DNA of 64,000 bases, from positions 16,368,001 to 16,432,000 of the forward strand of contig OZ024758.1 of NCBI GenBank assembly GCA_964016885.1, read 5' to 3'. The stretch comes from Eledone cirrhosa (Eukaryota). This document shows, piece after piece, positions 3,471 to 60,765 of the stretch. Below the pieces are notes generated by a model. It ran no database searches, was not told where the DNA came from, and saw only the letters and a program-made list of their open reading frames with translations. A program made the translations under genes and the position numbers. Numbering within the stretch: position 1 is the stretch's first letter; the number at the start of each line of letters is the position of its first letter.

Positions 3471-4975
3471 AACCCTGCCATGGACTGGCGTCCTATCCAG
3501 AGAAAGGGAGGGGGATATTGTACTCTCAGTTGCTTCACACCACGGAAACTGAGATAACTATCAGCCTGGTGAGCCTCAGGGCTCGAAACAGACTACAACT
3601 TTGTGATGGATTGGCAACCTGTCCAGGGGAGGTCATGTACTCTCCGTCGCTTCACACCATGGAAACCGAGAGAAATCCTAGCCTTACGAACCACCGAGAT
3701 GTAGACAAACTTTAACCCTGTAGTGGATTGGTGTCCTGTCCGGGAGGGGAAGTCTTGTACTCTTAGTCACTTCACACCACGGACAACAGGATAAACACCG
3801 GCCTAATGTGCCTCTCAACACGAGACTGATTTTAACCCTGCGATGGTCTCACGTCCTATCTAGGAGGAGTCTTGAACTCTTAGTCGCTCCACGCTATGGA
3901 ACCGGGATAAGCAACGGACTGATGGGCCTGAAGGCTTGCGACAGACTTTAACCCTGCGATGGACTGGTGTCTTGTCCAGGGTGGAGTCTTGTACTCACAC
4001 TTCACACCACAAACAGCTGGGTAAGAACATGCCAGACGAGCTTTCGAGCTTCCGAGCTCGAGACAGACTTTGAATAACTGGCGTCCTGTCCAGGGTGGAG
4101 TCTTGTACTCACACTTCACACCACAAACACCTGGATAAGAACATGCCTGACGAGCTTTCGAGCTTCTGAGCTCGAGACAGACTTTGAATAACTGGCGTCC
4201 TGTCCAGGGTGGAGTCTTGTACTCACACTTCACACCACAAACACCTGGATAAGAACATGCCTGACGAGCTTTCGAGCTTCTGAGCTCGAGACAGACTTTG
4301 AATAACTGGCGTCCTGTCCAGGGTGGAGTCTTGTACTCACACTTCACACCACAAACACCTGGATAAGAACATGCCTGACGAGCTTTCGAGCTTCTGAGCT
4401 CGAGACAGACTTTGAATAACTGGCGTCCTGTCCAGGGTGGAGTCTTGTACTCACACTTCACACCACAAACACCTGGATAAGAACATGCCTGACGAGCTTT
4501 CGATCTTCCGAGCTCGAGACAGACTTTGAATAACTGGCGTCCTGTCCAGGGTGGAGTCTTGTACTCACACTTCACACCACAAACACCTGGACAAGAACAT
4601 GCCTGACGAGCTTTCGATCTTCCGAGCTCGAGACAGACTTTGAATAACTGGCGTCCTGTCCAGGGTGGAGTCTTGTACTCACACTTCCCACCACAAACAC
4701 CTGGATAAGAACATGCCTGACGAGCTTTCGAGCTTCTGAGCTCGAGACAGACTTTGAATAACTGGCGTCCTGTCCAGGGTGGAGTCTTGTACTCACACTT
4801 CACACCACAAACACCTGGATAAGAACATGCCTGACGAGCTTTCGAGCTTCTGAGCTCGAGACAGACTTTGAATAACTGGCGTCCTGTCCAGGGTGGAGTC
4901 TTGTACTCACACCACAAACACCTGGATAAGAACATCCCTGGCGAGCTTTCGAGCTTCCGAGCTCGAGACAGACTT
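3470..4975 (+). repeat. SINE-3'-derived tandem array: ~4 diverged units then 9 homogeneous 114-bp units
   Basis: gcgtcc recurs at 4081, 4195, 4309...4879 (period 114); unit contains the V/Meta-SINE-like ctggcgtcctgtccagggtgg. Confidence 0.9.
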
Positions 4976-8724: not shown

Positions 8725-8767
8725 TATATAATATATAAGATCAAAAGATGGTTAAAAGAGTTCCATG

Positions 8768-8838
8768 TATTTTATTATGCGCATTTCAAAAACAAATATC
8801 ATCATGCAATAACATTTGCGTTTTCGTCAGATAAAATA
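8768..8838 (-). ncRNA. Type I hammerhead ribozyme in fold-back element 8733-8985
   Basis: Stem I TATTTTAT/ATAAAATA, CTGACGA, long stem II, GAAA, palindromic stem III ATGCGCAT, AUA triplet. Confidence 0.85.
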
Positions 8839-9078
8839 GGGAGACATGATATGACGGTTAAAACACACTTGTGAATAGTGCAGTTTTAAATCAATATATA
8901 TTATGCTATTGCATTATGATATTTGTTTTTGAAATGCGCATAATAATACATGGAACTCTTTTAACCATCTTTTGATCTTATATATTATTTATACTCCAGT
9001 CCTACAAACTGTAGAGTGCTTCTTATCCGATATCTGCATTGCTTTATTGTACTACAATAAAACTCACCTCCTACACAC

Positions 9079-10889: not shown

Positions 10890-11590
10890 TTCTTCTTATT
10901 CCTTTTCGCCCATTTATTTCTGAGAGGGTCGGAGGGGGGGGGGGGGGGGGGGGGTTAAGGTTCTGAAACACTCCTTCCAGCGAGTCCTGTCAGAAGCAAC
11001 CGTCTCCAACTGATCAGGCTGGACCCTCAATCGAGACCAGCCAAGCTCATTGATGTTATCCAACTATCTTGTTCAGGGTTTACCCCTGGGTCTCCTACCT
11101 GTTGGATTTGCTCGTAAAATCTGACCAGCGATTCTTTCCTGAGGCATTCTAGCCACATGCCCGTAGTCTCGGAGCTGTGTTCTCTCAATTCGGAGAAGTA
11201 TCAGCTCTACCTGGAGAGACTCTCTGTTCTCTGAGCTACAAGTCTGTCCAGCGATTCTTTCCCCGAGACATTTTAACCACATGCCCATAGTATTGGAGCT
11301 GTGATCTCTCAATTCGGAGAAGTATCAGCTCTATCTGGAGAGACTCTCTGTTCTCTGAGCTACAAGTCTGTCCAGCGATTCTTTCCTGAGACATTTTAAC
11401 CACATGCCCATAGTATTGGAGCTGTGATCTCTCAATTTTGTCCAGCTAGTCTTTCCAGAGACATCCTAACCACATGCACATGATATCGGAGCTGTGATCT
11501 CTGAATTTGGAGAAGTAACGGCTCTACCTGGAGTGACTCTCTGAGCTCTGTGTTACGCATTTTATCGAGTAACGTTACTCCAAAGACCCT
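10890..11590 (-). mobile_element. RTE-clade LINE 3' fragment with internal tandem duplications
   Basis: LLRIERTQLRDYGHVARMPQERIAGQILRANPTGRRPRGKP is the typical RTE post-RT motif (GH..RM...GRRPRG.P). Confidence 0.8.
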
Positions 11591-12465: not shown

Positions 12466-13415
12466 TTCTTCTGGTTTTGTAATTTCACAAAGTTTTACCA
12501 ATAGGGAGAGAGTCGGTTTCTAACATAGACACAAGACTCTCTCATTGGAATTTACACAACATCAACTAGGTAGATATGTATGTCTGCATACAGGCATGTG
12601 TAGATATGGATGTTATTGTATGTGTGGATGTGGATGTTTTGAGTTGTATGTGTGCATGTGTATATGCTTTGTATCTGTACATGTGTATATGCAGTTACTA
12701 GATGCAAAATCTTTGGAATGTTTTACATATTTTTATGTATGTATGTATGTATGTATGTATGTATGTATGTATGTATGTATGTATGTATGTATGTGTGTAT
12801 GTATGTATGCATGCATGCATGCATGCATGTATGTAGTGTCTGTGTATGTATGTATGTTCTTCTGGTTTTATAATTTCACAAATGTTTACCAATAGAGAGA
12901 GCCGGTTTCTAACATAGACACAAGACTCTCTCATTGGAATTTTCACAACATCAACTAGGTAGATATGTATGCATGTCTGCATACAGGCATGTGTAGGTAT
13001 GGATGTTATTGTATGTGTGGATGTGTATGTTTTGAGTTGTATGTGTGCATGTGTATATGCTTTGCATCTGTACATGTGTATATGCAGTTATTAGATGCAA
13101 AATGTTTGGAATGTTTTACATATTTTTACTGTTCCATTAATGGATTGTAATTGTAATTTCCTAACTAGTTGTGTTCTTTCTGTTCCTGTGAAGCCTAGCT
13201 TCTCAAAATTTGTATTGAGGCAGTTACTAACATACCCCAGTGCCCCAATAATCACAGGCATAAATCTGAAGGTGTAATCAGGGTGGAATATCTGCAGATT
13301 TCTCATCAGTTCTGCATAAATATTCTCCTTTTCGCTAATCTTTGATATTATATTGGCATCTGCTGGGCAGCTAACTTCCACTACTGTGCATGCTTTCTTC
13401 TCCCTGTCCCATATC

Positions 13416-13417
<2 letters not shown>
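12465..13417 (-). mobile_element. R4/Dong-like non-LTR retrotransposon 3' end with duplicated 3' UTR in (TACA)n
   Basis: RLE ORF plus 3' UTR at 12855-13090; UTR repeated at 12465-12735 and, more diverged, at 14180-14430, each ending in (TACA)n. Confidence 0.75.
13091..13417 (-). pseudogene. Restriction-like endonuclease (PD-D/ExK) C-terminus, 5'-truncated
   Basis: IWD...VVEVSCP..NI..K..EK..Y..L...PVIIGALG pattern of RLE-bearing LINEs. Confidence 0.8.
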
Positions 13418-13446
<29 letters not shown>

Positions 13447-13509
13447 TGTATGTATGTATGTATGTATGTATGTATGTATGTATGTATGTATGTATGTATG
13501 TATGTATGT

Positions 13510-14120
13510 TATGTCAGGTCACCAGTTGGTGCTACTGGTAACATGTATTCCAGTACAACCTGGCTCATGGTCGGGTCGTTGGCGACTAAACTGGCAACCC
13601 CACCAAGGTTTCTTGGTGAGGAGGGTGACTTTGGACATCCTGCAGGACTAAAAACAAAACCTGTCAAAGGGCAAAGGAGCTCTTAAGAGTCAATGACCAT
13701 CCAAAATCACCGGGAGGGATGACCCCTTAGCCTTTGTCAAGGCAGAATTCTAGGAGAAGGAAAACTCTGATATAACACCTGCAACCCTGATAGTATCCAA
13801 TGATGTTGACTTGTTCTTCTTTTTGGTAAATATCATCTTGGTTAAGAGAGTGGGACTGGCTTTGTGCAGTGCCTTTGCTCACTATAAAAGCTTCACGGCA
13901 CAGGCATTGCTTTATATCTGGAGATCTCTCTGCACTTGTCGTCACATGGTACCATGGGCCCAGCACTATGTGTCAATAATTGTCACAGGTGTAGTGTTTG
14001 TACCAGAGTTTTCAAGTCGCTGGCTGGACTAAAAAGTTACACTCGTTCAGCACAACGGTAGGAGTTCTCCTACATGGATATAAAGTAGTGGCCGTACTCG
14101 AAAACGAGTTGGCAGCCACC
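13510..14120. mobile_element. Composite of two convergent RTE-like 5' ends; second copy at 26070-26490
   Basis: Plus part carries ggagaaggaaaactctgatataac (RTE 5' UTR-like); minus part ends at an APE-start-like VNIIG; near-identical to 26070-26490. Confidence 0.55.
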
Positions 14121-19728: not shown

Positions 19729-19839
19729 TATATATAGTAATAATAATAAATTTGAAGACCAAAATCCAAAGAGGGTTCGATAAGGATAAATATATATCAA
19801 ATATATATGAACCGTAGAACAAAATATTTATTAAAATAA

Positions 19840-19913
19840 CAGATTAAAGTTTAAGCAAAGAATTGCTGCTTTCACCCTTAACGGGATCTTCTGAAACTAA
19901 CAGAGTCAATCTG
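19840..19913 (-). ncRNA. Type I hammerhead variant (U4A core CAGAAGA)
   Basis: Stem I AGTTT/AAACT extended by CAGATTGA/TTAATCTG; U-U closed stem II CCC/GGG; GAAA; stem III AGCA/TGCT; CUU triplet. Confidence 0.7.
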
Positions 19914-20827
19914 TAAACGCAGAAGTGAATATTTTAAAAAACGTTGCAACCGGAGGAAGACAGGAAGACGATACTTTGGTTCGTGGAAACGTTCGCTGGC
20001 AAAGAACGGGAAAAAACGAATATAATACGTCATTATTTGGAGCGGAGAAAAACAATTGCACGCAAAGACAGAACCACGTTTATGGTATAAAAGAAGTCGT
20101 AGACTAATATTCTCTTAGGTGGTTCATAGAGACGTTCTCTGGCAATGAACGAAAAAAAACGAAGATAATACGTCATATGTGGAGCGTAGAGAACAATTGC
20201 ACGCAAAGACAAAACCACGTAAATGGTATAACTTAAGTCGTAGAGGAAAATTCTAACTAGGAAACCGAATGATTCTCCGCTTCAGAGTTAAGAATAAAGT
20301 AAATAAAATACAGAGGTAATTGAAATTAAATAAATACATACACGCATCCAAATACGTACACACATAAGCATACGCGAAAACACTCGCCATAGGTATACAA
20401 ATACACACACATATAAATATGTGCGTGTGTGTGCGTGTACACAAATAATTAAATAAACATATATAAATAAATAAATACGTATATAACAAGCGCACACACA
20501 TACCTACATGTAAATACACAAATGTTCGGAGACGTACGTCAACCAAAACACGAAGTACACATATACACGCACCCTACATACGTACGAACCCGCATAGTCA
20601 CACAGACGCAAAACTCACGTATACACATAACCAAAAGCATATGTACCAGAATATATAAAATATACGCCATAACATATACAATCAAATATACGTACGAGAA
20701 AGTATACGTACCTTAACAAAACATACAGGTAATATATACTTACCTATGCAAATAAGTAATCGTATAAACATAACATATAATTAGCTACCACATCAAGACG
20801 TAAAATATCCGCGTATAGATCGTACTA

Positions 20828-21923
20828 TCAGTTAGGGTATAATGTGGGGCTGTAATACAGGAAAATTTTGTGCAATTTATGTTTACAAGCTGAAATTGCC
20901 TCAGATTTTTGTTTAAGATGTGGTCTGTGGCGTAGAGTATTTCCAGGGCCTCAGCGGCACAGAGGTCACATGGTCTTTTATTTCCGTTATACGATCTAGC
21001 CCTAGCTGGTTGTCTTTTAGACTCCAGATATAAGCTGAAAGTGACGTCATATTCCTTCTTAGAGGGTAACGAAAAGAATGGGTATGCATGTAAAGACGCT
21101 GTTTGAATTTATTGGTGGTTAACCCTATGTAGGCCCTACGGGACGTGGGTGTTTCAACCTTACATTTGTAGACAATGTTACTAGAGAGGCATTTCCCGGA
21201 TAGAGGGCAATCAACTCGATTCCTACAATTACAGTTAGTACTAACTACAGGGTTGCACGTGTTCCTACGGCTAGGTAGTTTAGCTAAATTTCAAGCTGTG
21301 ATGTTATGTGCAAGGTTAGGAGTCGTAGAGTAAGAAATTTTAATAGTATTTCTATTAAAAATTTTACTATGTTTATGTGTAGGAGGAAAATGCCTCGTAA
21401 TAAGGGATAGAAAGATCTTAGCTAATGGTGTGGCCACCTCCATATTATATGGTGCGTTATACCATATAATGCGTCGGGATCTATTTCTTCGAGGTCTATT
21501 CTCGTACTCTGTATATGCTACCTTATCGACAAATCCACTCCGACCAAGAGCTTCATTGTAATATGTGGAATGGTCGTTGAAAATATGCTCGTTAGTAGAT
21601 AGACGGGAAAGCCTCAACGAAACGTTTCTTACCAGGTTCTTGGTTATGCTGGCAGGATGGTTGGAATGCTTACTTATGTAATTAAGCGTATCATTCGGCT
21701 TTCTATACGGGTAATACAAGCCATTCGATAAGTTGAGGGTAACGTCGAGGTAATTAACGACCGAGAGGTTGGCCTCAACCTGTATAGAGAGGTTGAAGCC
21801 TTTAAAGAAGGCTGTGAGTTCTTTTCTGAACCTGTCGCAAGCACGAGGGCCGCACTTAGTTATGGTCAAAAGACCATCATCACAGTACAAACGACTGCCC
21901 ACGTTGGGGAATTCGTCCTTGAT
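20828..21923 (-). pseudogene. PLE RT C-terminus, Cys-rich linker and GIY-YIG endonuclease
   Basis: LYCDDGL; NYLDVTLNL..YRKPN..YI..SNHP; TGA at 21291-21293; CNCRNRVDCPLSGKC; IVYKC...YIGLT..FKQR...H; frameshift near 21000; CDLCAAE...LNKKSE...CKH. Confidence 0.9.
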
Positions 21924-21989
21924 AGATATATATAATACAAAAACACGAGGAAGGTTTGTTTACATCTGAAAAATATTTATTGCATATCG

Positions 21990-25049: not shown

Positions 25050-26030
25050 CAGGGGAGGGTCGACTCCAGTAAGGATGAAAGTCAAAGCTAACCTTGGAGG
25101 GATTTGAACCCAGAACGTAAAGGGCCGTAACTCAATGCCACAAAGCATGTTATCTGACGCTCTAGCGATCCACCCATCGTGCTCGGAGTCTAACCCTAGC
25201 TCTCCTGCCGGTTGGTTTTGCCCGTAAAATCTGCCCAGCGATTCTTTCCTGAGACATTCTAACCACAGGCCTATAGTATCGGAGCTGTAATCTCTCAATT
25301 CGGAGAAGTAGCGGCTCTACCTGGAGCGACTCTCTGATCTGAGCTAAAATTCTGTCCTGCGATTATTTCCTGAGACATTTTAACCAATATGCCCATAGTT
25401 TTGGGGCTGTGATCTCTCAATTCGGAGAAGTAGCAGCTCTATATGGAGCGACTCTCTGATCTGACTCTCATTTCTGAGCTACAAATCTGTCAAGCGATTC
25501 TTTCCTGAAACATTTTAACCAATATGCCCATAGTTTTGGGGCTGTGATCTCTCAATTCACAGAAGTAGCAGCTCTACTCGGAGTGACTCTCTCATCTCTG
25601 ACTGAGCTACAAATCTGTCAAGCGATTCTTTCCTGAGACATTCTAACCACACGCCCATAGTATCGGAGCTGTCATCTCTCAATTCAGAGAAGTAGCAGCT
25701 CTACCTGGAGCGACTCTCTCATCTCTGAGCTACAAATCTGTCAAGCGGTTCTTTCCTGAGACATTCTAACCACGTGCCGATAGTATCGGAGCTGTCATCT
25801 CTCAATTCAGAGAAGTAGCAGCTCTACATGGAGCGACTCTCTGATCTGAGCTACAAATCTGTCAAGCGGTTCTTTCCTGAGACATTTTAAACAATATGCC
25901 CATAGTATCGGAGCTGTCATCTTCCAATTCGGAGAAGTGGTGGATCTACCTGGAGTGACTCTGATCTCCGAATTACGCACTTTATCAAGTAACGTTATTC
26001 CAAAGACCCTACGGTGGAACCCCATTTCAG
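25050..26030 (-). mobile_element. SINE fragment plus RTE 3' fragment with ~7 internal tandem units
   Basis: Repeated ctctcaattcggagaagtagcagctctac unit; homologous to 10890-11590. Confidence 0.75.
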
Positions 26031-37610: not shown

Positions 37611-38644
37611 CTGTAAATGTATTCATAGCTCTGAATATTATTAGTTGTGTTTAAATATACAAGCAGTATGTATAATCCCATTCGTAATTACAATGCTTCC
37701 GCAGTTGTATCGACGTGGGTGTATATGTGCTGATGTTTCAATAAACAATGAAAAGATGATATAGATTTAAAGATGAGAAATAGAAAATTGAGAACATATG
37801 TATGTAGGATAAGCTGCTATGATAAATGGAGGTTATACAATGACTTACAGAATCTCAATTATACAAACGATGTCGTTTGATAATGAATTCATTAAGAATA
37901 TATAAATATATAAATATATATTTCACCAAAAATATAGATTATTTTAGATTAAAGATAGATATCTGTAGAGCATTATAAAATAAAATATTGTAAAATTTAT
38001 TATGAATTCAATGGTGAAAAACATCTGCTTCTCTCAGATAAATAAAAAACAACCCAAAACCAAAGTAAAACAAAATATAAATACACACCCCAAAATCTAT
38101 TTACCAAAAATGTCGTCATAAAAACTAAATAATTTTTGGTATGTAAATGTTAAAGTGTATTGCTTAGATACATAACAAGGAAAGAAAATGTTAAGAAATA
38201 ATATGAAAGTTTTATCAATCTGTGTGTATTTAAAAAAAAAATATGAGAAAATCTGTAGATATTTTGAAGCAGACGATAACAGACTATTCTATCGGTTTTG
38301 TAAATATGAAATATTTTATAGCGAAATGCTGTAAAGCAAAGTAATAAACATCGAGTATATCTTAACCAAGAGAGAGGCAAGATAGAAAAATACTTGCATT
38401 AGCTATTAGCCTGTAATAATATCATAACCTCTCAATATTTCAATCACAACAGCTTCATCTTACTAAATATTATATTATAGAAACAAACATAAATACATCA
38501 ATGTATTTTCAGTAGTGAGTTAAATCCGTATATATAAACATGTATGTGTGTGCGTGCGTGCGCGCGTGTGTGTTAAGTATTTCCGTGAAAAAAGTAAAGG
38601 AAAGAAGAGTGCTCTATGTATAGTACAGAGCTATTTCATTATGT

Positions 38645-38861
38645 AATAAACAACATAATATAATTATTCCATTACCCAAGGTTTCATGACGTTAGACGTT
38701 TCTATCAGAAACGAATGATATCGTTCATCAGACGGAATATTTAGTAAATAAAGATTCTTTATTTACTAAATATTCCGTCTGATGAACGATATAAGACGTT
38801 TCTGTTAGAAACGTCTAACGTCATGAAACCTTGGGTAATGGAATAATTATATTATGTTGTT

Positions 38862-38865
<4 letters not shown>
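38645..38865. mobile_element. Fold-back element with two divergent HHR motifs (38682-38737 minus; 38773-38828 plus)
   Basis: TTCCGT CTGATGA ... GAAACGT-CTA-ACGT C ATGAAA; GUC triplet; irregular stem II. Confidence 0.75.
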
Positions 38866-38896
<31 letters not shown>

Positions 38897-39288: not shown

Positions 39289-39712
39289 GACGTAAAATAA
39301 GAAAATTATAAAAATTAACTTACTTACTAAAATTTCACACCAACTAATTTCACACCAACTAATCTGAAAGGGAATAAACATGGTTTCCGAATGGAACATG
39401 GAGAATACCTTTCGTCATCAGGAAGTCAATTCTCAGCTAAGTTCCCAGGCGATGCGTGGACACAGGGAACTTATACAAAAATAATTCAGTGGATGGAAAA
39501 AAGCAAGCAAGGACTAAATTCCAGGACATTGAAAAAAATCACTGCCTACTTGGTCGGTGGCAAATTCAAAAGAATCAATCACGTGACATCGAGGTTAATC
39601 AGTGAGGAGTGGGGTGTTAATAAGACAGTAGCTTGACTATTACTATGAACTATATATATATATATATATAGGATATTAACAAATGGAAACTATATTTATA
39701 AAACCATATTTA

Positions 39713-39773
39713 TTTCATTATACATATTTCAAGGACACCAAGTTAAATTATGGTGTGCTTTCATCAGATAAAA
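39713..39773 (-). ncRNA. Hammerhead, family D
   Basis: TTTTAT CTGATGA AAG..CACCA/TGGTG..CTT GAAATATGTATA ATGAAA. Confidence 0.75.
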
Positions 39774-40751
39774 CATAATATAGAGCAGTTTTATAAATAA
39801 ATATTGACATACCCTTAAAGAATGCAACCATTACTGTTGGAAGCTCCCGGATAGTGGAGTTATATCTTTAATTATACTATTATGTAAGATAGTATTGGAT
39901 ATTTTTAAATAAGCCGTTGGGTTACGGAGAAAGAGAAAGAGAGAGAGAGAGAAGAACAAGAGAGAAAAAAAAAGAAAGAGAAAAAAGAAAAGAGAGAGAG
40001 AGAGAGAGAGGAGAAAGAGAAAGGAGAGAGAGCGAAAACTCTAAGTGATAGGTTGTTGAGTTATCTTAACATTTGAGATGAAGTGAAAGAGTAAATAAAA
40101 TTAGAAATGTAAATAATCATGAATGGAAGATACATATATAATATGAGAATTTTAACCATTGTTTAAATATGATTAAATGTTTAGTTAATCAATTAAAAGT
40201 TGAGATCTATATATTAAGAAATCTATATATTATTATTAAGACTATATATTATTAAAAATCTATATATTATTAGAAGAATATATTCACACATATACACACG
40301 CAAGTATACATACATATAAAAATATATATACACATGTATAAATCTATATACATATATATCTACGTATATAATATACATACAAAATATAAAGGATTTTTTA
40401 ATTTAAGATCTAGGAATCTTATAAAATCAGAGAAAATCATTTCTATGTAATATCAAAGCAGCGTGAAGGAAAATTACGTTATTTAGTTATATAAATGTTA
40501 CAATTGTTAAGATATTAAAGGAAGTTTTATGTTATACACACTTTATGTTATTATACACATTTTTTTCATATAAGTTTTATATTTAATAAGATTACCTGTT
40601 ATGTAGTTATGACTGTTATTATATATGTTTATTTGTCACGAACCTTAGGATAATCCTTATATCGTATTTTTACTCCAATTATTTGTTGAGTGCTTTATAT
40701 CAGTTATAAAAATATTTGCTTGTTCTATCCCAACAATTTGAATAGAACTTT

Positions 40752-46837: not shown

Positions 46838-47910
46838 CGTAGCTCAGGGATCAGCGAGTCTCTCCAGGTAGAGCTGCTACTTCTCCGAATTGAGAGATCA
46901 CAGTTTCGATACTATGGGCATGTGGTTAGAATGTCTCAGGAAATGATCGCTGGATAGATTTGTAGCTCAGAGATCAGAGAGTCATTCCAGGTAGAGCTGT
47001 TACTTCTCCGCATTGAGAGATCACAGCTCCGATACTATGGGCATGTGGTTGATCGCTGGATAGATTTGTAGCTCAGAGAGTCACTCCAGGTAGAGCTGTT
47101 ACTTCTCCGCATTGAGAGATCAAAGCTCCGATACTATGGGCATGTGGTTAATCGCTGGATAGATTTGTAGCTCAGAGATCAGAGAGTGACTCCAGGTAGA
47201 GCTGTTACTTCTCCGCATTGAGAGATCACAGCTCCGATACTATGGGCATGTGGTTAATCGTTGGATAGATTTGTAGCTCAGAGAGTCACTCCTGGTAGAG
47301 CTGTTACTTCTCCGCATTGAGAGATCACAGCTCCGATACTATGGGCATGTGGTTGATCGCTGGATAGATTTGTAGCTCAGAGAGTCACTCCAGGTAGAGC
47401 TGTTACTTCTCCGCATTGAGAGATCACAGCTCCGATACTATGGGCATGTGGTTGATCGCTGGATAGATTTGTAGCTCAGAGAGTCACTCCAGGTAGAGCT
47501 GTTACTTCTCCGCATTGAGAGATCACAGCTCCGATACTATGGGCATGTGGTTGATCGCTGGATAGATTTGTAGCTCAGAGAGTCACTCCAGGTAGAGCTG
47601 TGACTTCTCCGCATTGAGAGATCACAGCTCCGATACTATGGGCATGTGGTTAGAATGTCTCAGGAAAGAATCACTGGACAGAATTGATGCGCAAAACCAA
47701 CAGGCAGGAGACCCAGGGGTAGCCCCTGAGCAAGACAGTTGGTGGATAACATCCATGAGCTTGGCTGGTCACGCTTGCGGATCCGGGCGGATCAGTTGGA
47801 GGCGGTTGCTCCTAACAGGGCCTGCTGGAAGGAGTGTTTGAGGACTCTGTACCCCCCCCCCCCGCCCCTAAGACCCTCTCAGGAATAAGTGAGTAAAGAA
47901 GAAGAGGCCA
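46838..47910 (+). mobile_element. RTE 3' fragment with ~8 internal tandem units and GAA-rich tail
   Basis: Repeated agagtcactccaggtagagctgttacttctccgcattgagagatcacagc; terminal GRRPRG.P segment. Confidence 0.8.
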
Positions 47911-49456: not shown

Positions 49457-49575
49457 AACAAACATATACATATAAGCATTTCGAAATATGATTAGAAGTA
49501 TAAATTAAAGTCAGAAAATGTGAAAGGAAAGATACATACAAGGAAGAGTATATACGATTGATAGAAAACATAGAT

Positions 49576-51990
49576 ATAGAGACAGAAGCTATAGAGACAG
49601 AAGCTATAGAGACAGAAGATATAGAGACAAAAGCTATAGAGACAGAAGCTATAGAGACAGAAGATATAGAGACAGAAGATATAGAGACAGAAGATATAGA
49701 GACAGAAGATATAGAGACAGAAGCTATGGAGACAGAAGCTATAGAGAGAGAAGCTATAGAGACAGAAGCTATAGAGACAGAAGCTATAGAGACAGAAGCT
49801 ATAGAGACAGAAGCTATAGAGACAGAAGATATAGAGACAGAAGCTATAGAGACAGAAGCTATAGAGACAGAAGCTATAGAGACAGAAGCTATAGAGACAG
49901 AAGCTATAGAGACAGAAGCTATAGAGACAGAAGCTATAGAGACAGAAGCTATAGAGACAGAAGCTATAGAGACAGAAGCTATAGAGACAGAAGCTATAGA
50001 GACAGAAGCTATAGAGACAGAAGCTATAGAGACAGAAGCTATAGAGACAGAAGATATAGAGACAGAAGATATAGATACAGAAGCTATAGAGACAGAAGAT
50101 ATAGAGACAGAAGCTATAGAGACAGAAGCTATAGAGACAGAAGCTATAGAGACAGAAGCTATAGTGACAGACGCTATAGAGACAGAAGCTATGGAGACAG
50201 AAGATATAGAGACAGAAGCTATAGAGACAGAAGCTATAGAGACAGAAGATATAGAGACAGAAGCTATAGAGACAGAAGCTATAGAGACAGAAGCTATAGA
50301 GACAGAAGCTATAGAGACAGAAGCTATAGAGACAGAAGCTATAGAGACAGAAGCTATAGAGACATTAGATATAAAGACAGAAGATATAGAGACAGAGGCT
50401 ATAGAGACAGAAGATATAGAGACAGAAGCTATAGAGACAGAGGCTATAGAGACAGAAGCTATAGAGACAGAAGCTATGGAGACAGAAGCTATAGAGACAG
50501 AAGCTATGGAGACAGAAGATATAGAGACAGAAGCTATAGAGACAGAAGCTATAGAGACAGAGGCTATAGAGACAGAAGCTATAGAGACAGAAGCTATAGA
50601 GACAGAAGCTATAGAGACAGAAGCTATAGAGACAGAAGCTATAGAGACAGAAGCTATAGAGACAGAAGCTATAGAGACAGAAGCTATAGAGACAGAAGAT
50701 ATAGAGACAGAAGATATAGAGACAGAAGATATAAAGACAGAAGCTATAGAGACAGAAGCTATAGAGACTGAAGATATAGAGACAGAAGATATAGAGACAG
50801 AAGCTATAGAGACAGAAGATATAGAGACAGAAGCTATAGAGACAGAAGATATAGAGACAGAAGCTATAGAGACAGAAGATATAGAGACAGAAGCTATAGA
50901 GACAGAAGATATAGAGACAGAAGATATAGAGACAGAAGCTATAGAGACAGAAGATATAGAGACAGAAGCTATAGAGACAGAAGATATAGAGACAGAAGAT
51001 ATAGAGACAGAAGCTATAGAGACAGAAGATATAGAGACAGAAGCTATAGAGACAGAAGATATAGAGACAGAAGGTATAGAGACAGAAGCTATAGAGACAG
51101 AAGCTATAGAGACAGAAGCTATAGAGACAGAAGCTATAGAGACAGAAGATATAGAGACAGAAGCTATAGAGACAGAAGCTATAGAGACAGAAGCTATAGA
51201 GACAGAAGATATAGAGACAGAAGCTATAGAGACAGAAGCTATAGAGACAGAAGATATAGAGACAGAAGCTATAGAGACAGAAGATATAGAGACAGAAGCT
51301 ATAGAGACAGAAGCTATAGAGACAGAAGCTATAGAGACAGAAGCTATAGAGACAGAAGATATAGAGACAGAAGATATAGAGACAGAAGATATAGAGACAG
51401 AAGCTATAGAGACAGAAGCTATAGAGACAGAAGATATAGAGACAGAAGCTATAGAGACAGAAGCTATAGAGACAGAAGCTATAGAGACAGAAGCTATAGA
51501 GACAGAAGCTATAGAGACAGAAGCTATAGAGACAGAAGCTATAGAGACAGAAGCTATAGAGACAGAAGATATAGAGACAGAAGATATAGATACAGAAGCT
51601 ATAGAGACAGAAGCTATAGAGACAGAAGCTATAGAGACAGAAGCTATGGAGACAGAAGATATAGAGACAGAAGCTATAGAGACAGAAGATATAGAGACAG
51701 AAGCTATAGAGACAGAAGCTATAGAGACAGAAGCTATAGAGACAGAAGCTATAGAGACAGAAGCTATAGAGACAGAAGCTATAGAGACAGAAGCTATAGA
51801 GACAGAAGCTATAGAGACAGAAGCTATGGAGACAGAAGATATAGAGACAGAAGATATAGAGACAGAAGCTATAGAGACAGAAGCTATAGAGACAGAAGCT
51901 ATAGAGACAGAAGATATAGAGACAGAAGATATAGAGACAGAAGCTATGGAGACAGAAGCTATAGAGACAGAAGCTATAGAGACAGAAGAT
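49576..51990. repeat. 15-bp minisatellite atagagacagaag(c/a)t, ~161 units
   Basis: Phase kept throughout; two main variants. Confidence 0.98.
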
Positions 51991-52091
51991 ATAGAGAAAT
52001 ACGAAGACAAAGGAAGTAAAGATAAATGTAAAGAGAAGGGTCTGGGTGATAGGAGCAGGAGGAAGACATAAATAAAATGAAGCAGAGCTAG

Positions 52092-52720: not shown

Positions 52721-52744
52721 ATATATATATATATATACATATAT

Positions 52745-53365
52745 AGTAATAATAATAATTTTGAAGACTAAAATCCAAAGAGGGCTCGGTAAGGATAAAT
52801 ATATATCAAATATATAAGAACCGTAGAGCAAATATTTATTAAAATAACAGATTAAAGTTTAAGCAAAGAATCGCTGCTTTCATCCTTAATGGGATCTTCT
52901 GAAACTAACAAAGTCAATCTGTGAACGCAGAAGTGAATATTTCAAAAAACGTTGCAACCGAAGGAAGACAGGAAGACGATACTTTGGTTCGTGGAAACGT
53001 TCCCTGTCAAAGAACGGGTAAAACGAACATAATACGTCATTAATAGGAGCGGTGAAAAACAATTACACGCAAAGACAGAACCACGTTTATGGTATAAAAG
53101 AAGTCGTAGACTTATGTTCTCTTAGGTGGTGCATAGAGACGTTCTCTGGCTATGAACGGAAAAAACGATGATAATACGTCATATGTGGAGCGTGGAGAAC
53201 AATTGCATGCAAAGACAAAACCACGTAAATGGTATAGCTGAAGTCGTAGAGTAAAATTCTAACTAGGAAACCGAATGAATCTCCGCTTAGTTAGTTTCAG
53301 AAGATCCCGTTAAGGGTGAAAGCAGCGATTCTTTGCTTAAACTTTAATCTGTTATTTTAATAAAT
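52745..53365 (-). mobile_element. Solo pseudo-LTR of the Naiad element with inverted HHR arm
   Basis: Homologous to 19735-20282; HHRs at 52848-52921 (minus) and 53293-53343 (plus). Confidence 0.85.
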
Positions 53366-56984: not shown

Positions 56985-57014
<30 letters not shown>

Positions 57015-57021
<7 letters not shown>

Positions 57022-60000
57022 GATCGAGTATCGAAAAATCGGCGCACGAGTTCACGATAAACGAGATTCGACATGAGCGGCAGAGGGCTCAATAATTCAG
57101 ATGAATCAGAGCTATAACTATCGTTAAAATACCGTCACATATAGAACAAGTCTACAATCAACCATACGATTTAAAATCGATAAAGGAAGATTCGGGACAA
57201 ACAGATAAAAAATATCAATAAAACAATACGTCAATAATTTAAATGAATGTAAAATCATACCCGGACCCACTAGACAGGTGTTAAATCTAGCTTCATGGGT
57301 TTCTGTAAATCCTTAGACTGTACTCTATCAGCTCACATATAAATATAAAAGCCTACTAGAGCAAGCGGAACGGAGTTTTACTTTCTCAACGAGTTTTTTC
57401 CTGGCGGTAGAGGAGCCAACTACCAGTGAAAAACGCACATGGCATTAGACAAGGGAGATAACCCCTATATCCGCGAAAACAATTCGAGTGAATGTGGAAA
57501 TACACATATCGAATTAGAGTGCTCAATAGACAAGTTAAAATAAAACAAAAGCTATTCATCACTCAATAGAATCGACAAAAAATGAGCAATAAAATAAACT
57601 GGTGGATAGCTAAGTCCAGAGCTAAATATATTAGAAAGATCGAGTATCGAAAAATCGGCGCACGAGTTCACGATAAACGAGATTCGACATGAGCGGCAGA
57701 GGGCTCAATAATTCAGATGAATCAGAGCTATAACTATCGTTAAAATACCGGCACATATAGAACAAGTCTACAATCAACCATACGATTTAAAATCGATAAA
57801 GGAAGATTCGGGACAAACAGATAAAAAATATCAATAAAACAATACGTCAATAATTTAAATGAATGTAAAATCATACCCGGACCCACTAGACAGGTGTTAA
57901 ATCTAGCTTCATGGGTTTCTGTAAATCCTTAGACTGTACTCTATCAGCTCACATATAAATATAAAAGCCTACTAGAGCAAGCGGAACGGAGTTTTACTTT
58001 CTCAACGAGTTTTTTCCTGGCGGTAGAGGAGCCAATCTAAGGATTTACAGTCTAAGGATTTACAGAAACCCATGAAGAAACCCATGAAGCTAGATTTAAC
58101 ACCTGTCTAGTGGGTCCGGGTATGATTTTACATTCATTTAAATTATTGACGTATTGTTTTATTGATATTTTTTATCTGTTTGTCCCGAATCTTCCTTTAT
58201 CGATTTTAAATCGTATGGTTGATTGTAGACTTGTTCTATATGTGACGGTATTTTAACGATAGTTATAGCTCTGATTCATCTGAATTATTGAGCCCTCTGC
58301 CGCTCATGTCGAATCTCGTTTATCGTGAACTCGTGCGCCGATTTTTCGATACTCGATCTTTCTAATATATTTAGCTCTGGACTTAGCTATCCACCAGTTA
58401 ATTTTATTGCTCATTTTTTGTCGATTCTATTGAGTGATGAATAGCTTTTGTTTTATTTTAACTTGTCTATTGAGCACTCTAATTCGATATGTGTATTTCC
58501 ACATTCACTCGAATTGTTTTCGCGGATATAGGGGTTATCTCCCTTGTCTAATGCCATGTGCGTTTTTCACTGGTAGTTGGCTCCTCTACCGCCAGGAAAA
58601 AACTCGTTGAGAAAGTAAAACTCCGTTCCGCTTGCTCTAGTAGGCTTTTATATTTATATGTGAGCTGATAGAGTACAGTCTAAGGATTTACAGAAACCCA
58701 TGAAGCTAGATTTAACACCTGTCTAGTGGGTCCGGGTATGATTTTACATTCATTTAAATTATTGACGTATTGTTTTATTGATATTTTTTATCTGTTTGTC
58801 CCGAATCTTCCTTTATCGATTTTAAATCGTATGGTTGATTGTAGACTTGTTCTATATGTGACGGTATTTTAACGATAGTTATAGCTCTGATTCATCTGAA
58901 TTATTGAGCCCTCTGCCGCTCATGTCGAATCTCGTTTATCGTGAACTCGTGCGCCGATTTTTCGATACTCGATCTTTCTAATATATTTAGCTCTGGACTT
59001 AGCTATCCACCAGTTAATTTTATTGCTCATTTTTTGTCGATTCTATTGAGTGATGAATAGCTTTTGTTTTATTTTAACTTGTCTATTGAGCACTCTAATT
59101 CGATATGTGTATTTCCACATTCACTCGAATTGTTTTCGCGGATATAGGGGTTATCTCCCTTGTCTAATGCCATGTGCGTTTTTCACTGGTAGTTGGCTCC
59201 TCTACCGCCAGGAAAAAACTCGTTGAGAAAGTAAAACTCCGTTCCGCTTGCTCTAGTAGGCTTTTATATTTATATGTGAGCTGATAGAGTACAGTCTAAG
59301 GATTTACAGAAACCCATGAAGCTAGATTTAACACCTGTCTAGTGGGTCCGGGTATGATTTTACATTCATTTAAATTATTGACGTATTGTTTTATTGATAT
59401 TTTTTATCTGTTTGTCCCGAATCTTCCTTTATCGATTTTAAATCGTATGGTTGATTGTAGACTTGTTCTATATGTGACGGTATTTTAACGATAGTTATAG
59501 CTCTGATTCATCTGAATTATTGAGCCCTCTGTCGCTCATGTCGAATCTCGTTTATCGTGAACTCGTGCGCCGATTTTTCGATACTCGATCTTTCTAATAT
59601 ATTCAGCTCTGGACTTAGCTATCCACCAGTTAATTTTATTGCTCATTTTTTGTCGATTCTATTGAGTGATGAATAGCTTTTGTTTTATTTTAACTTGTCT
59701 ATTGAGCACTCTAATTCGATATGTGTATTTCCACATTCACTCGAATTGTTTTCGCGGATATAGGGGTTATCTCCCTTGTCTAATGCCATGTGCGTTTTTC
59801 ACTGGTAGTTGGCTCCTCTACCGCCAGGAAAAAACTCGTTGAGAAAGTAAAACTCCGTTCCGCTTGCTCTAGTAGGCTTTTATATTTATATGTGAGCTGA
59901 TAGAGTACAGTCTAAGGATTTACAGAAACCCATGAAGCTAGATTTAACACCTGTCTAGTGGGTCCGGGTATGATTTTACATTCATTTAAATTATTGACGT

Positions 60001-60104
60001 ATTGTTTTATTGATATTTTTTATCTGTTTGTCCCGAATCTTCCTTTATCGATTTTAAATCGTATGGTTGATTGTAGACTTGTTCTATATGTGACGGTATT
60101 TTAA

Positions 60105-60108
<4 letters not shown>
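57015..60108. mobile_element. 616-bp-unit multimer with internal inversion (~1.65 plus ~3.35 units) in (AT)n
   Basis: ttagaaagatc at 57015 and 57631; cccatgaagc at 58081, 58697, 59313 and 59929; inversion at ~58036. Confidence 0.9.
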
Positions 60109-60149
<41 letters not shown>

Positions 60150-60303
60150 ATATATAAATATATATGTGTATATATATATAAATATATATATGAAATATAT
60201 ATATAAATATATATATGTATATATATATAAATATATATATGTATATATATATAAATATATATATGTATATATATATATATATAAATATATATATGTATAT
60301 ATA

Positions 60304-60765
60304 CAATATTAAATAAATGGAAACTATATTTATAAAACCATATTTATTTCATTATATATATTTCAGGGATATCATATTAACAATATGCTATGCCTTCCTC
60401 AGACAAAATACAATATAAACAGTTTTATGGATAAATAGATTTGACATACGCTAACAACATCGACTTGTATTTGAAAAGTTGAATTGACTGCCAATTCAAC
60501 TTTTCAAATACAAGTCGATGTTGTTACGGTATGTCAAATCTATTTATCTATAAAACTGTTTATATTGTATTTTGTCTGAGGAAGGCATAGCATATTGTTA
60601 ATATGATATCCCTGAAATATATATAATGAAATAAATATGGTTTTATAAATATAGTTTCCATTTATTTAATATTGTAAATATACTCCAAATACTTGTCGAG
60701 TGCTTTTATATCAGTTATAAATATTTACTAGTTGTAACCCAACAATTTAAATATAACTTTCCATA
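60304..60765. mobile_element. Fold-back family D element with two divergent HHRs (60346-60409 minus; 60569-60632 plus)
   Basis: ~185-bp near-perfect arms; ATTTTGT CTGAGGA AGG...CCT GAAATATATATA ATGAAAT. Confidence 0.85.

Follow-up and report, generated by a model that had tools for sequence, protein, structure and literature searches.

A young non-coding 616-nt repeat in a two-armed insertion in Eledone cirrhosa and its possible copying from circular and hammerhead-cut RNA by a Hydra-clade Penelope-like element

Introduction

Rolling-circle reverse transcription of hammerhead circular RNAs by the enzymes of Penelope-like elements (PLEs) is a proposal that dates back to 2014 (PMC4209133, PMC7229834), and it has been called unclear what part is played by the hammerheads that PLEs themselves carry (PMC8557442). 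Among the closest described systems are the metazoan non-LTR retrozymes. Like the repeat described here, they are built of tandem units that are non-coding, low in GC and each laid out with a type I hammerhead; the unit lengths reported for them range from 51 to 972 bp, a range within which 616 bp falls (PMC7229834; 10.64898/2026.07.22.740005). Hammerheads of PLEs are frequently variants with weak activity in vitro (PMC4209133), a natural hammerhead with a one-letter insertion after A6 showed low activity (PMC3088659), and eight of nine Xenopus retrozymes did not cleave in vitro (10.64898/2026.07.22.740005). PLE insertions include forms with an inverted arm and a tail on one side only (PMC8557442). 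A PLE protein in purified form cleaved and extended both strands, with starts at two internal positions, and hammerhead cleavage was dispensable for the PLE in vitro (PMC11167929).

The insertion analysed here lies within the window, that is, the whole 64,000-nucleotide stretch of Eledone cirrhosa DNA under study. An earlier note on this DNA had read it as a non-coding multimer with an inversion, produced by rolling-circle reverse transcription of a 616-nt RNA that carries a non-canonical or trans-completed ribozyme and is mobilised by PLE machinery.

Results

The insertion consists of two inverted multimeric arms within (AT)n

The description of the locus as about five near-identical 616-bp units in two orientations was confirmed, with 1.67 units on the minus strand followed by about 3.35 inverted units on the plus strand. 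Unit position 1 was set at window position 58374 and unit numbering is counted from there, so that one full unit (1-616) occupies 58374-58989 of the plus strand. The left arm (57010-58035) has its sense strand on the minus strand, a 5′ end at unit 204 and a 3′ end at site 2 (see below), the right arm (58046-60109) has its sense strand on the plus strand, and both carry the same rare haplotype. The (AT)n setting also holds, as such tracts adjoin both outer ends of the insertion (56990-57015 on the left, 60107-60142 on the right). Single-unit substitutions in the 3.1 kb of the insertion number four (57596, 57751, 59532 and 59604). The longest stop-free frame on the circularised unit is 62 aa, which bears out the reported lack of a meaningful ORF, and the GC content of 36.5% agrees with the non-coding, low-GC character of non-LTR retrozymes. 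The fold of the 616-nt unit is stronger than that of shuffled sequences (z -3.1, 0 of 20 shuffles); folded as a circle the unit gave z -2.5 (1 of 40 shuffles), and the antisense strand gave z -1.2 (4 of 40). Both micro-duplications described at the inversion junction, of 15 nt and 12 nt, can be read directly from the sequence at 58036-58080 (plus strand), and from them we infer slippage during the joining of two cDNA ends.

A dispersed family has a fixed 3′ end and variable 5′ ends

A search of the species' own 3.0-Gb genome with the 616-bp unit returned 876 candidate places. Dispersed multimers in (AT)n, as anticipated in the earlier note, are well supported, and copies of the family are present at hundreds of loci. 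Scoring was carried out on 40 of the 876 places (the top-scoring set, window included). All but one of the 39 top-scoring loci other than the window (38/39) end at unit 607-611, designated site 2, and then pass into (AT)n, with the other end variable. Genome-wide there are 718 exact matches to the pattern of site 2 running into (AT)n, corresponding to at least 718 copies, and the joint contains 2-4 nt of AT common to both partners. Site 2 is thus the major fixed 3′ end and the probable start of reverse transcription; in the window it lies at 57012-57018 on the minus strand. An older subfamily (subfamily B), 82% identical, gave 3321 candidates, and 38 of the 39 loci fetched from it end at the matching site. 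The part best conserved between the subfamilies is hairpin 1 together with a second, minor end, site 1 (98%), against 79-80% in the spacer regions.

Copy length was assessed in a sample unselected for length, comprising 80 of the first 86 places on one contig, the other six being already in the top-scoring set. Copies shorter than one unit made up 32 of these 80, two or more units were present in 27 and ten or more in nine; the 5′ end was resolved in 78, and one copy ends at an assembly gap. Copy lengths span 0.1 to over 24 units, and the longest array was still open after extension. No target-site duplication was seen, and the (AT)n flanks would mask one. Target-primed reverse transcription leaves this combination of a fixed 3′ end and variable 5′ ends, and the sense strand is thereby fixed as the one that had been predicted. 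No account of the 616-bp family was found in a literature search whose reach ended short of Repbase, Dfam and most subscription papers.

Two-armed copies use a second fixed end

The left arm of the window insertion ends at site 2 and the right arm at about unit 504, here called site 1 (60104-60109, plus strand), a minor fixed 3′ end without a tail that lies approximately 105 nt from site 2. Site 1 is joined to (AT)n at 12 exact joints genome-wide, compared with one joint for a control site with a longer AT match. Of the 12 site-1 copies, eight (the one in the window among them) have two arms, the partner arm terminating at site 2, and the other four have a single arm; the one control-site joint likewise belongs to a two-armed copy. 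The seven loci besides the window show the same two-armed layout with different inner junctions; no two-armed copy occurs among the 80 loci of the unselected sample. In eight two-armed copies examined the arms differ from one another at 0-4 positions (medians to other arrays, 2-46), which points to a single RNA or a single source as the likely origin of both arms. The inversion is a two-ended PLE insertion form and not a feature of the ribozyme. The earlier placement of the inversion within putative stem II of the hammerhead-like motif applies to the inner end of the right arm only, the inner end of the left arm lying about 100 nt upstream. Its statement that other hammerhead fold-backs in the window point their sense strands outward holds for the two cases to which the check was limited (52744-53365 and 60295-60683).

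A Hydra-clade PLE has the same target, end geometry and hairpins

Outside the insertion, the window contains a broken copy of a Hydra-clade PLE (19740-21959, minus strand) with reverse transcriptase, linker, GIY-YIG and 3′ UTR, which belongs to the likely helper family, and a fold-back of the Hydra PLE 3′ end (52744-53365) with the same geometry as the insertion and a tail on the left arm only. Within the stretch of the broken copy, the broken PLE itself was located at 20913-21959. The family has about 50-60 thousand candidate places in the genome; a 713-codon open frame is present in 10 of 30 Hydra PLE loci, and copies are 93.6-99.1% identical. Placement in the Hydra clade follows from a C-terminal GIY-YIG, DKT, RWR (RWK-like), CxCX5C and a (TA)n target, the motifs having been read by eye in the L209 frame against the definition and alignment available in PMC8557442; a Pfam search with the helper PLE gave no significant match.

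In the Hydra PLE, 80 nt separate the two fixed ends, both of which lie in (TA)n, and behind each end is a GCUC...GAGC hairpin, followed by CCUCU at the first end and by ACUCU at the second. The 616-bp repeat shows this hairpin pair too, in matching order relative to its two sites: hairpin 1 (then CCUCU) immediately follows site 1 on the 3′ side, at 58884-58914, and hairpin 2 (then ACUCU) immediately follows site 2 on the 3′ side and so belongs to the next unit, at 58990-59096 (both on the plus strand). A hairpin of similar kind also stands 3′ of the hammerhead in the consensus that precedes Hydra-1_Obim in the supplement of PMC8557442, a coral element by file order. A motif chain between the repeat and the Hydra PLE scored 24, compared with at most 20 in 150 shuffles and 6 for the antisense strand, and two segments colinear with the PLE turned up by chance in 7 of 500 shuffled sequences and in 1 of 185 chunks of the genome. 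The comparison yielded short motifs only and no continuous homology, so that by sequence alone the likeness is modest; the coincidence of these motifs with independently mapped ends adds weight, though it was spotted only afterwards. A 32-nt antisense match to the ORF region of the PLE (E 0.005-0.2) was set aside as chance.

The common target, the two-end geometry and the similar hairpins behind the ends make an intact Hydra PLE the likely mobiliser of the repeat in this genome, in which the Hydra family is the sole PLE family surveyed; searches for a closer autonomous partner returned this same family and nothing else. Counting against this helper, the youngest PLE matches are 99% alike, while some 616-bp arrays show zero internal differences. 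The earlier attribution to PLE machinery in general is well supported by the fixed ends, the two-armed copies and the existence of an intact Hydra PLE that agrees in target and in geometry. With a fixed 3′ end and variable 5′ truncation, an inverted arm with a one-sided tail and (TA)n targeting, PLE-type insertion of the repeat can be stated with high confidence. As hairpin 2 lies beyond the genomic end of each copy, the template must extend past that end; it could be a transcript of tandem units, a circle or a monomer cut at another place.

The hammerhead-like motif is non-canonical

The letters of the hammerhead-like motif described earlier are present at 58665-58732 (plus strand) in a type I layout, with a core that has one extra letter, an extra A before GAAA and a GUC at 58730-58732 after which (58732) the cut is predicted; further copies lie at 59281-59348 and 59897-59964 on the plus strand and at 57264-57331 and 57880-57947 on the minus strand. 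Stem I comprises one pair, a 10-nt bulge and six pairs. Two of the checks that the earlier note had proposed gave the ribozyme no support, as Rfam scans returned no relevant match for the motif and a covariation analysis of 14 variants spanning the subfamilies found a compensatory change in none of 24 pairs. A hammerhead descriptor also missed the motif, though it found seven hammerheads elsewhere in the window. The hammerhead-active fold has an energy of -7.7 kcal/mol against a minimum of -22.1 kcal/mol, a cost of about 14 kcal/mol, and stem II is weakened in two subfamilies, the older and the main young one. The motif therefore falls outside the canonical and minimal type I hammerhead, given its two extra nucleotides, 1-bp proximal stem I and lack of an Rfam match. 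Of 326 units, 311 retain the core letters, the motif region is 88-90% conserved, and the motif is located upstream of site 1, matching the position of the hammerhead in the helper PLE, in which the hammerhead core reads CAGAAGA. The earlier suggestion of a non-canonical ribozyme thus fails on canonical tests and draws only indirect support, from its position relative to the PLE motifs and from the 5′ ends behind its predicted cut; no need for completion in trans emerged. Whether the RNA is cut after GUC by this putative hammerhead is, in our estimate, evenly balanced.

5′ ends accumulate behind the predicted cut on the first pass

Of 70 copies, 11 have their 5′ end at unit 360-380, just behind the GUC (unit 359), where 2.4 were expected. 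In a replication on 40 new loci, with the test set beforehand, 6 of 38 resolved ends fell at 360-380 (p 0.002), one of the six having been known before the replication. Analysis of the 80 unselected loci by pass showed that at unit 360-383 the first pass stopped in 11 of 71 cases (baseline 1.5%) and later passes in 3 of 159 (baseline 0.9%; Fisher p 2e-4); in the original 360-380 window the figures were 10 of 70 and 2 of 158. Since the sequence context is identical on each pass, stalling at stem III or AT micro-homology as the sole cause of the pile-up is rejected by this first-pass excess. A fixed cDNA length is likewise rejected, as three copies begun elsewhere, at site 1 or unit 482, stop in the same stretch (L155, L160, L204). 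The stops lie mostly at AT-matching positions 364-383, with 1 of 108 ends exactly at 360, and one locus (L066) has a second, duplicated start at 360. The older subfamily, sampled as copies of at least one unit, showed no pile-up (2 of 38 at 360-380), and genome-wide counts of single-position 5′ junctions (three at 372, two at 351, one at 268) are too small to discriminate. A literature search, beyond whose reach most subscription papers lay, found no 5′-end analysis of this kind.

The simplest reading of the first-pass excess is two templates, one a linear RNA whose 5′ end lies close to 360, the other endless. A promoter starting near unit 360 would give the same stubs, and a competing account accordingly has the same PLE enzyme copying linear templates only, with an internal promoter at unit 360-383, multimers made from read-through transcripts and the hammerhead a dead remnant of a PLE terminal repeat. 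This possibility merits serious attention, being consistent with the failure of the hammerhead in structural tests, the spread of 5′ ends over 364-383, the declining numbers of stubs of 0.4, 1.4 and 2.4 units, the location of a promoter within PLE terminal repeats (PMC8557442) and the use of unprocessed RNA as the main in vitro substrate (PMC11167929). We nevertheless consider it doubtful, because, in the first sample, the 21-nt stretch richest in 5′ ends begins at the independently predicted cut, because transcripts of over 15 kb would be needed from still longer arrays, and because of the distribution of variants within arrays described below.

An array almost always carries a single haplotype

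Across 62 arrays, the distance within an array was 0-0.8%, compared with 2.4% on average between arrays. Changes private to one array (relative to the sample) were present in every copy in 17 of the 62, and among arrays of at most two units private changes were fixed in all copies in 7 of 17. Mosaic arrays are rare, with 11 mixed cells among 2678 array-by-segregating-site cells (76 arrays), and both of these results weigh against read-through from linear templates. Three long arrays contain 15, 17 and 18 identical internal units, and nine extended long arrays show about 19 differences over 136 internal units, homogeneity that may in its perfect form be partly assembly smoothing. No length variation was found among 371 internal site-2 junctions, and 422 of 425 junctions at the predicted cut are exact; end-to-end template jumping was rejected on the basis of these scar-free array junctions. 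T>C accounts for 7 of 20 array-fixed private changes compared with 16 of 115 single-unit changes (p 0.046); A>G accounts for none of the 20, which gives no support to RNA editing.

One haplotype per array and scar-free junctions are what repeated copying of one circle predicts. The rolling-circle origin put forward earlier fits both, and from them we infer that a circular RNA probably lies behind the long arrays, the alternative being read-through transcripts plus local expansion. Nine minor alleles are present in two or more units of one array, some with a 3-unit period, indicating that arrays also turn over locally, and such turnover can homogenise too. Local expansion taken as the whole explanation would have the repeat insert as stubs of 0.1-2 units and grow later into long arrays by unequal crossing-over or slippage at each locus, a route proposed in 10.64898/2026.07.22.740005. 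The shared minor alleles speak for it, but we consider it improbable, as both arms of two-armed copies are multimeric and yet carry one haplotype, and the nine of 80 loci with ten or more units, at about 19 differences in 136 internal units, would demand very fast expansion at many loci.

Helitrons have a fixed 5′ TC end and a 3′ CTRR end. A DNA rolling-circle element of this kind forming tandem arrays would account for the CTAA that precedes T at the one fixed end of the young family, for the multimers and for the absence of a visible target duplication, but it is already largely refuted and very improbable, since the terminus of the older subfamily is CTAC, the 5′ ends are variable and lack a fixed TC, two-armed copies have two fixed ends, and the repeat has motifs in common with the PLE. 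Duplication at a single locus or misassembly, which the earlier note had named among the grounds for refutation, retains a negligible probability: the family occupies hundreds of loci, seven other two-armed loci have different inner junctions, and the fixed end with AT is also seen in contigs of public sequencing run X2. Contigs of runs X2-X4 and X6 do not span the junction in the window, a result that is uninformative here, and run X1, tentatively taken as RNA, yielded short AT-rich pieces that bear on expression in neither direction.

Discussion

These results lead us to lean, on balance, towards the interpretation that a young non-coding 616-nt repeat, present in the window as a two-armed insertion, is copied into (AT)n by the reverse transcriptase of a Hydra PLE from both circular RNA and hammerhead-cut monomers. 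Tandem arrays would be transcribed, and a slow, possibly protein-assisted hammerhead would cut the transcripts after the GUC at unit 359 into linear monomers, some of which would be ligated to circles. The PLE protein would nick (AT)n, bind a GCUC/GAGC hairpin and begin reverse transcription at an internal position immediately 5′ of that hairpin, in most cases site 2. With a cut monomer as template, the enzyme would run off after about 250 nt, and trimming of the end to the nearest AT match would give the 0.4-unit stubs; on a circle it would go round until random drop-off, giving arrays. In a small minority of events extension would take place on both target strands, using site 1 for one and site 2 for the other on a shared RNA, and the two cDNAs would be joined 5′-to-5′, as in the window. 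A stronger form of this model is more speculative: the repeat may be an RNA replicon in which the doubly inserted, slow hammerhead is active, opened monomers yield the 0.4-unit stubs, circles yield arrays of 24 or more identical units, and the Hydra PLE enzyme is captured by two short mimic hairpins alone. If this were true, any RNA circle would become a rolling-circle template into (AT)n simply by carrying two such hairpins.

For the repeat, a candidate enzyme with intact frames can be named, as can two start sites, a cut site and two hairpins that are candidates for recognition, and the model is therefore open to testing with the in vitro PLE assay already published. The contrast between first and later passes offers a way of reading RNA processing from genome sequence alone, and if the motif does cleave, descriptor searches are missing retrozymes with variant cores.

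The repeat works like a non-LTR retrozyme, for which circle-templated tandem cDNA made by a PLE enzyme has also been proposed (PMC7229834; 10.64898/2026.07.22.740005); its membership is unproven, and it is not filed among them because its hammerhead departs from the canonical form. Unlike in those elements, the hammerhead here is non-canonical and predicted, and the RNA circle is deduced from genomic patterns alone. The genomic evidence on mechanism given here (fixed ends, haplotypes and 5′ ends) is not reported in the accessible parts of PMC7229834 and 10.64898/2026.07.22.740005. With the Hydra-clade PLEs, including Hydra-1_Obim (PMC8557442), the repeat has in common the (TA)n target, 5′ truncation, an inverted arm with a one-sided tail, the order hammerhead - end 1 - end 2 and similar hairpins behind the ends, whereas it has no ORF and no continuous homology to them, forms arrays of over 24 units and is rarely two-armed. 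The distance between the two ends is about 105 nt in the repeat, 80 nt in the Hydra element of this genome and 30-40 bp in the elements described in PMC8557442. Non-autonomous Chlamys PLEs such as MRC1 are likewise non-coding, with multicopy insertions arranged head-to-tail and with microsatellite targets, but their 3′ end resembles that of an autonomous partner and the clade is described as mostly without hammerheads (PMC8557442). Poseidon_Ac in vitro (PMC11167929) resembles the repeat in having two internal starts downstream of the hammerhead and an AT-rich target, and its cutting and extension of both strands and its protein-assisted hammerhead are also part of the mechanism proposed here; it differs in being autonomous and of another clade, and its starts are said to be non-homologous to the target, whereas the repeat has 2-4 nt of AT in common with (AT)n. 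Particular to the repeat are its variant core, the rarity of its two-armed copies and the first-pass accumulation of 5′ ends.

Array structure and spread of the 616-bp repeat

Copies of almost exactly one or two units were found at nine genomic loci (L049, L109, L117, L124, L129, L132, L179, L254 and L270), each with its 5′ end at or near site 2, the major fixed 3′ end of the repeat (unit 607-611). The 5′ ends also cluster near site 1 (unit 492-515), the minor fixed 3′ end. Analysis of the arrays at L039, L044 and L064 showed that minor alleles repeat every three units, pointing to either multi-unit duplications or a trimeric template. Among the 20 array-fixed changes private to a single array, T>C accounted for seven and A>T for five, and A>G was absent. 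Contigs from the public sequencing runs X2, X5 and X7, which carry three different organism codes, span much of the 616-bp unit at high identity, and on these matches the family extends beyond the Eledone cirrhosa assembly GCA_964016885.1.

Other repeats and hammerheads in the window

A 114-bp unit is repeated 8.9 times at 3963-4975, with copies 97% alike and CTGACGA present in most; a hammerhead descriptor run on the window gave no match for this repeat. Interrelated tandem repeats with units of 99-124 bp lie at 11120-11508, 25227-25962 and 46974-47651, the second of which has GCTCT..GAGC..ACTCT, similar to the PLE hairpin motif. At 49575-51997, a 15-bp unit is present in 161 copies, and several frames are open on both strands. 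A 140-aa frame at 13091-13513 (-), which had no match in Pfam, looks like the C-terminus encoded by a non-LTR retrotransposon.

Type I hammerheads with an 8-bp stem I were located at 8830 (-) (region about 8760-8840), 39767 (-) (39680-39800), and 60402 (-) and 60576 (+), the last two forming one fold-back (60295-60683) that directly adjoins the two-armed 616-bp insertion. A small fold-back at 38575-38870 has CTGATGA on both strands; it is probably another Hydra-type element end, since the GCTCT...GAGCACTCT hairpin of its left arm resembles the hairpins of the 616-bp repeat.

Comparison with the Hydra PLE

The hammerhead of the Hydra PLE, the abundant Hydra-clade Penelope-like element of this genome, occurs at 19893 (-), 52901 (-) and 53298 (+), and at position 1329 of locus L215. 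Its core is CAGAAGA (U4A), stem II has a basal U-U pair, stems I and III are good, and the form is the same in all copies seen. The Hydra PLE 3′-end fold-back (52744-53365) carries a tail solely on its left arm, and its geometry is identical to that of the 616-bp two-armed insertion.
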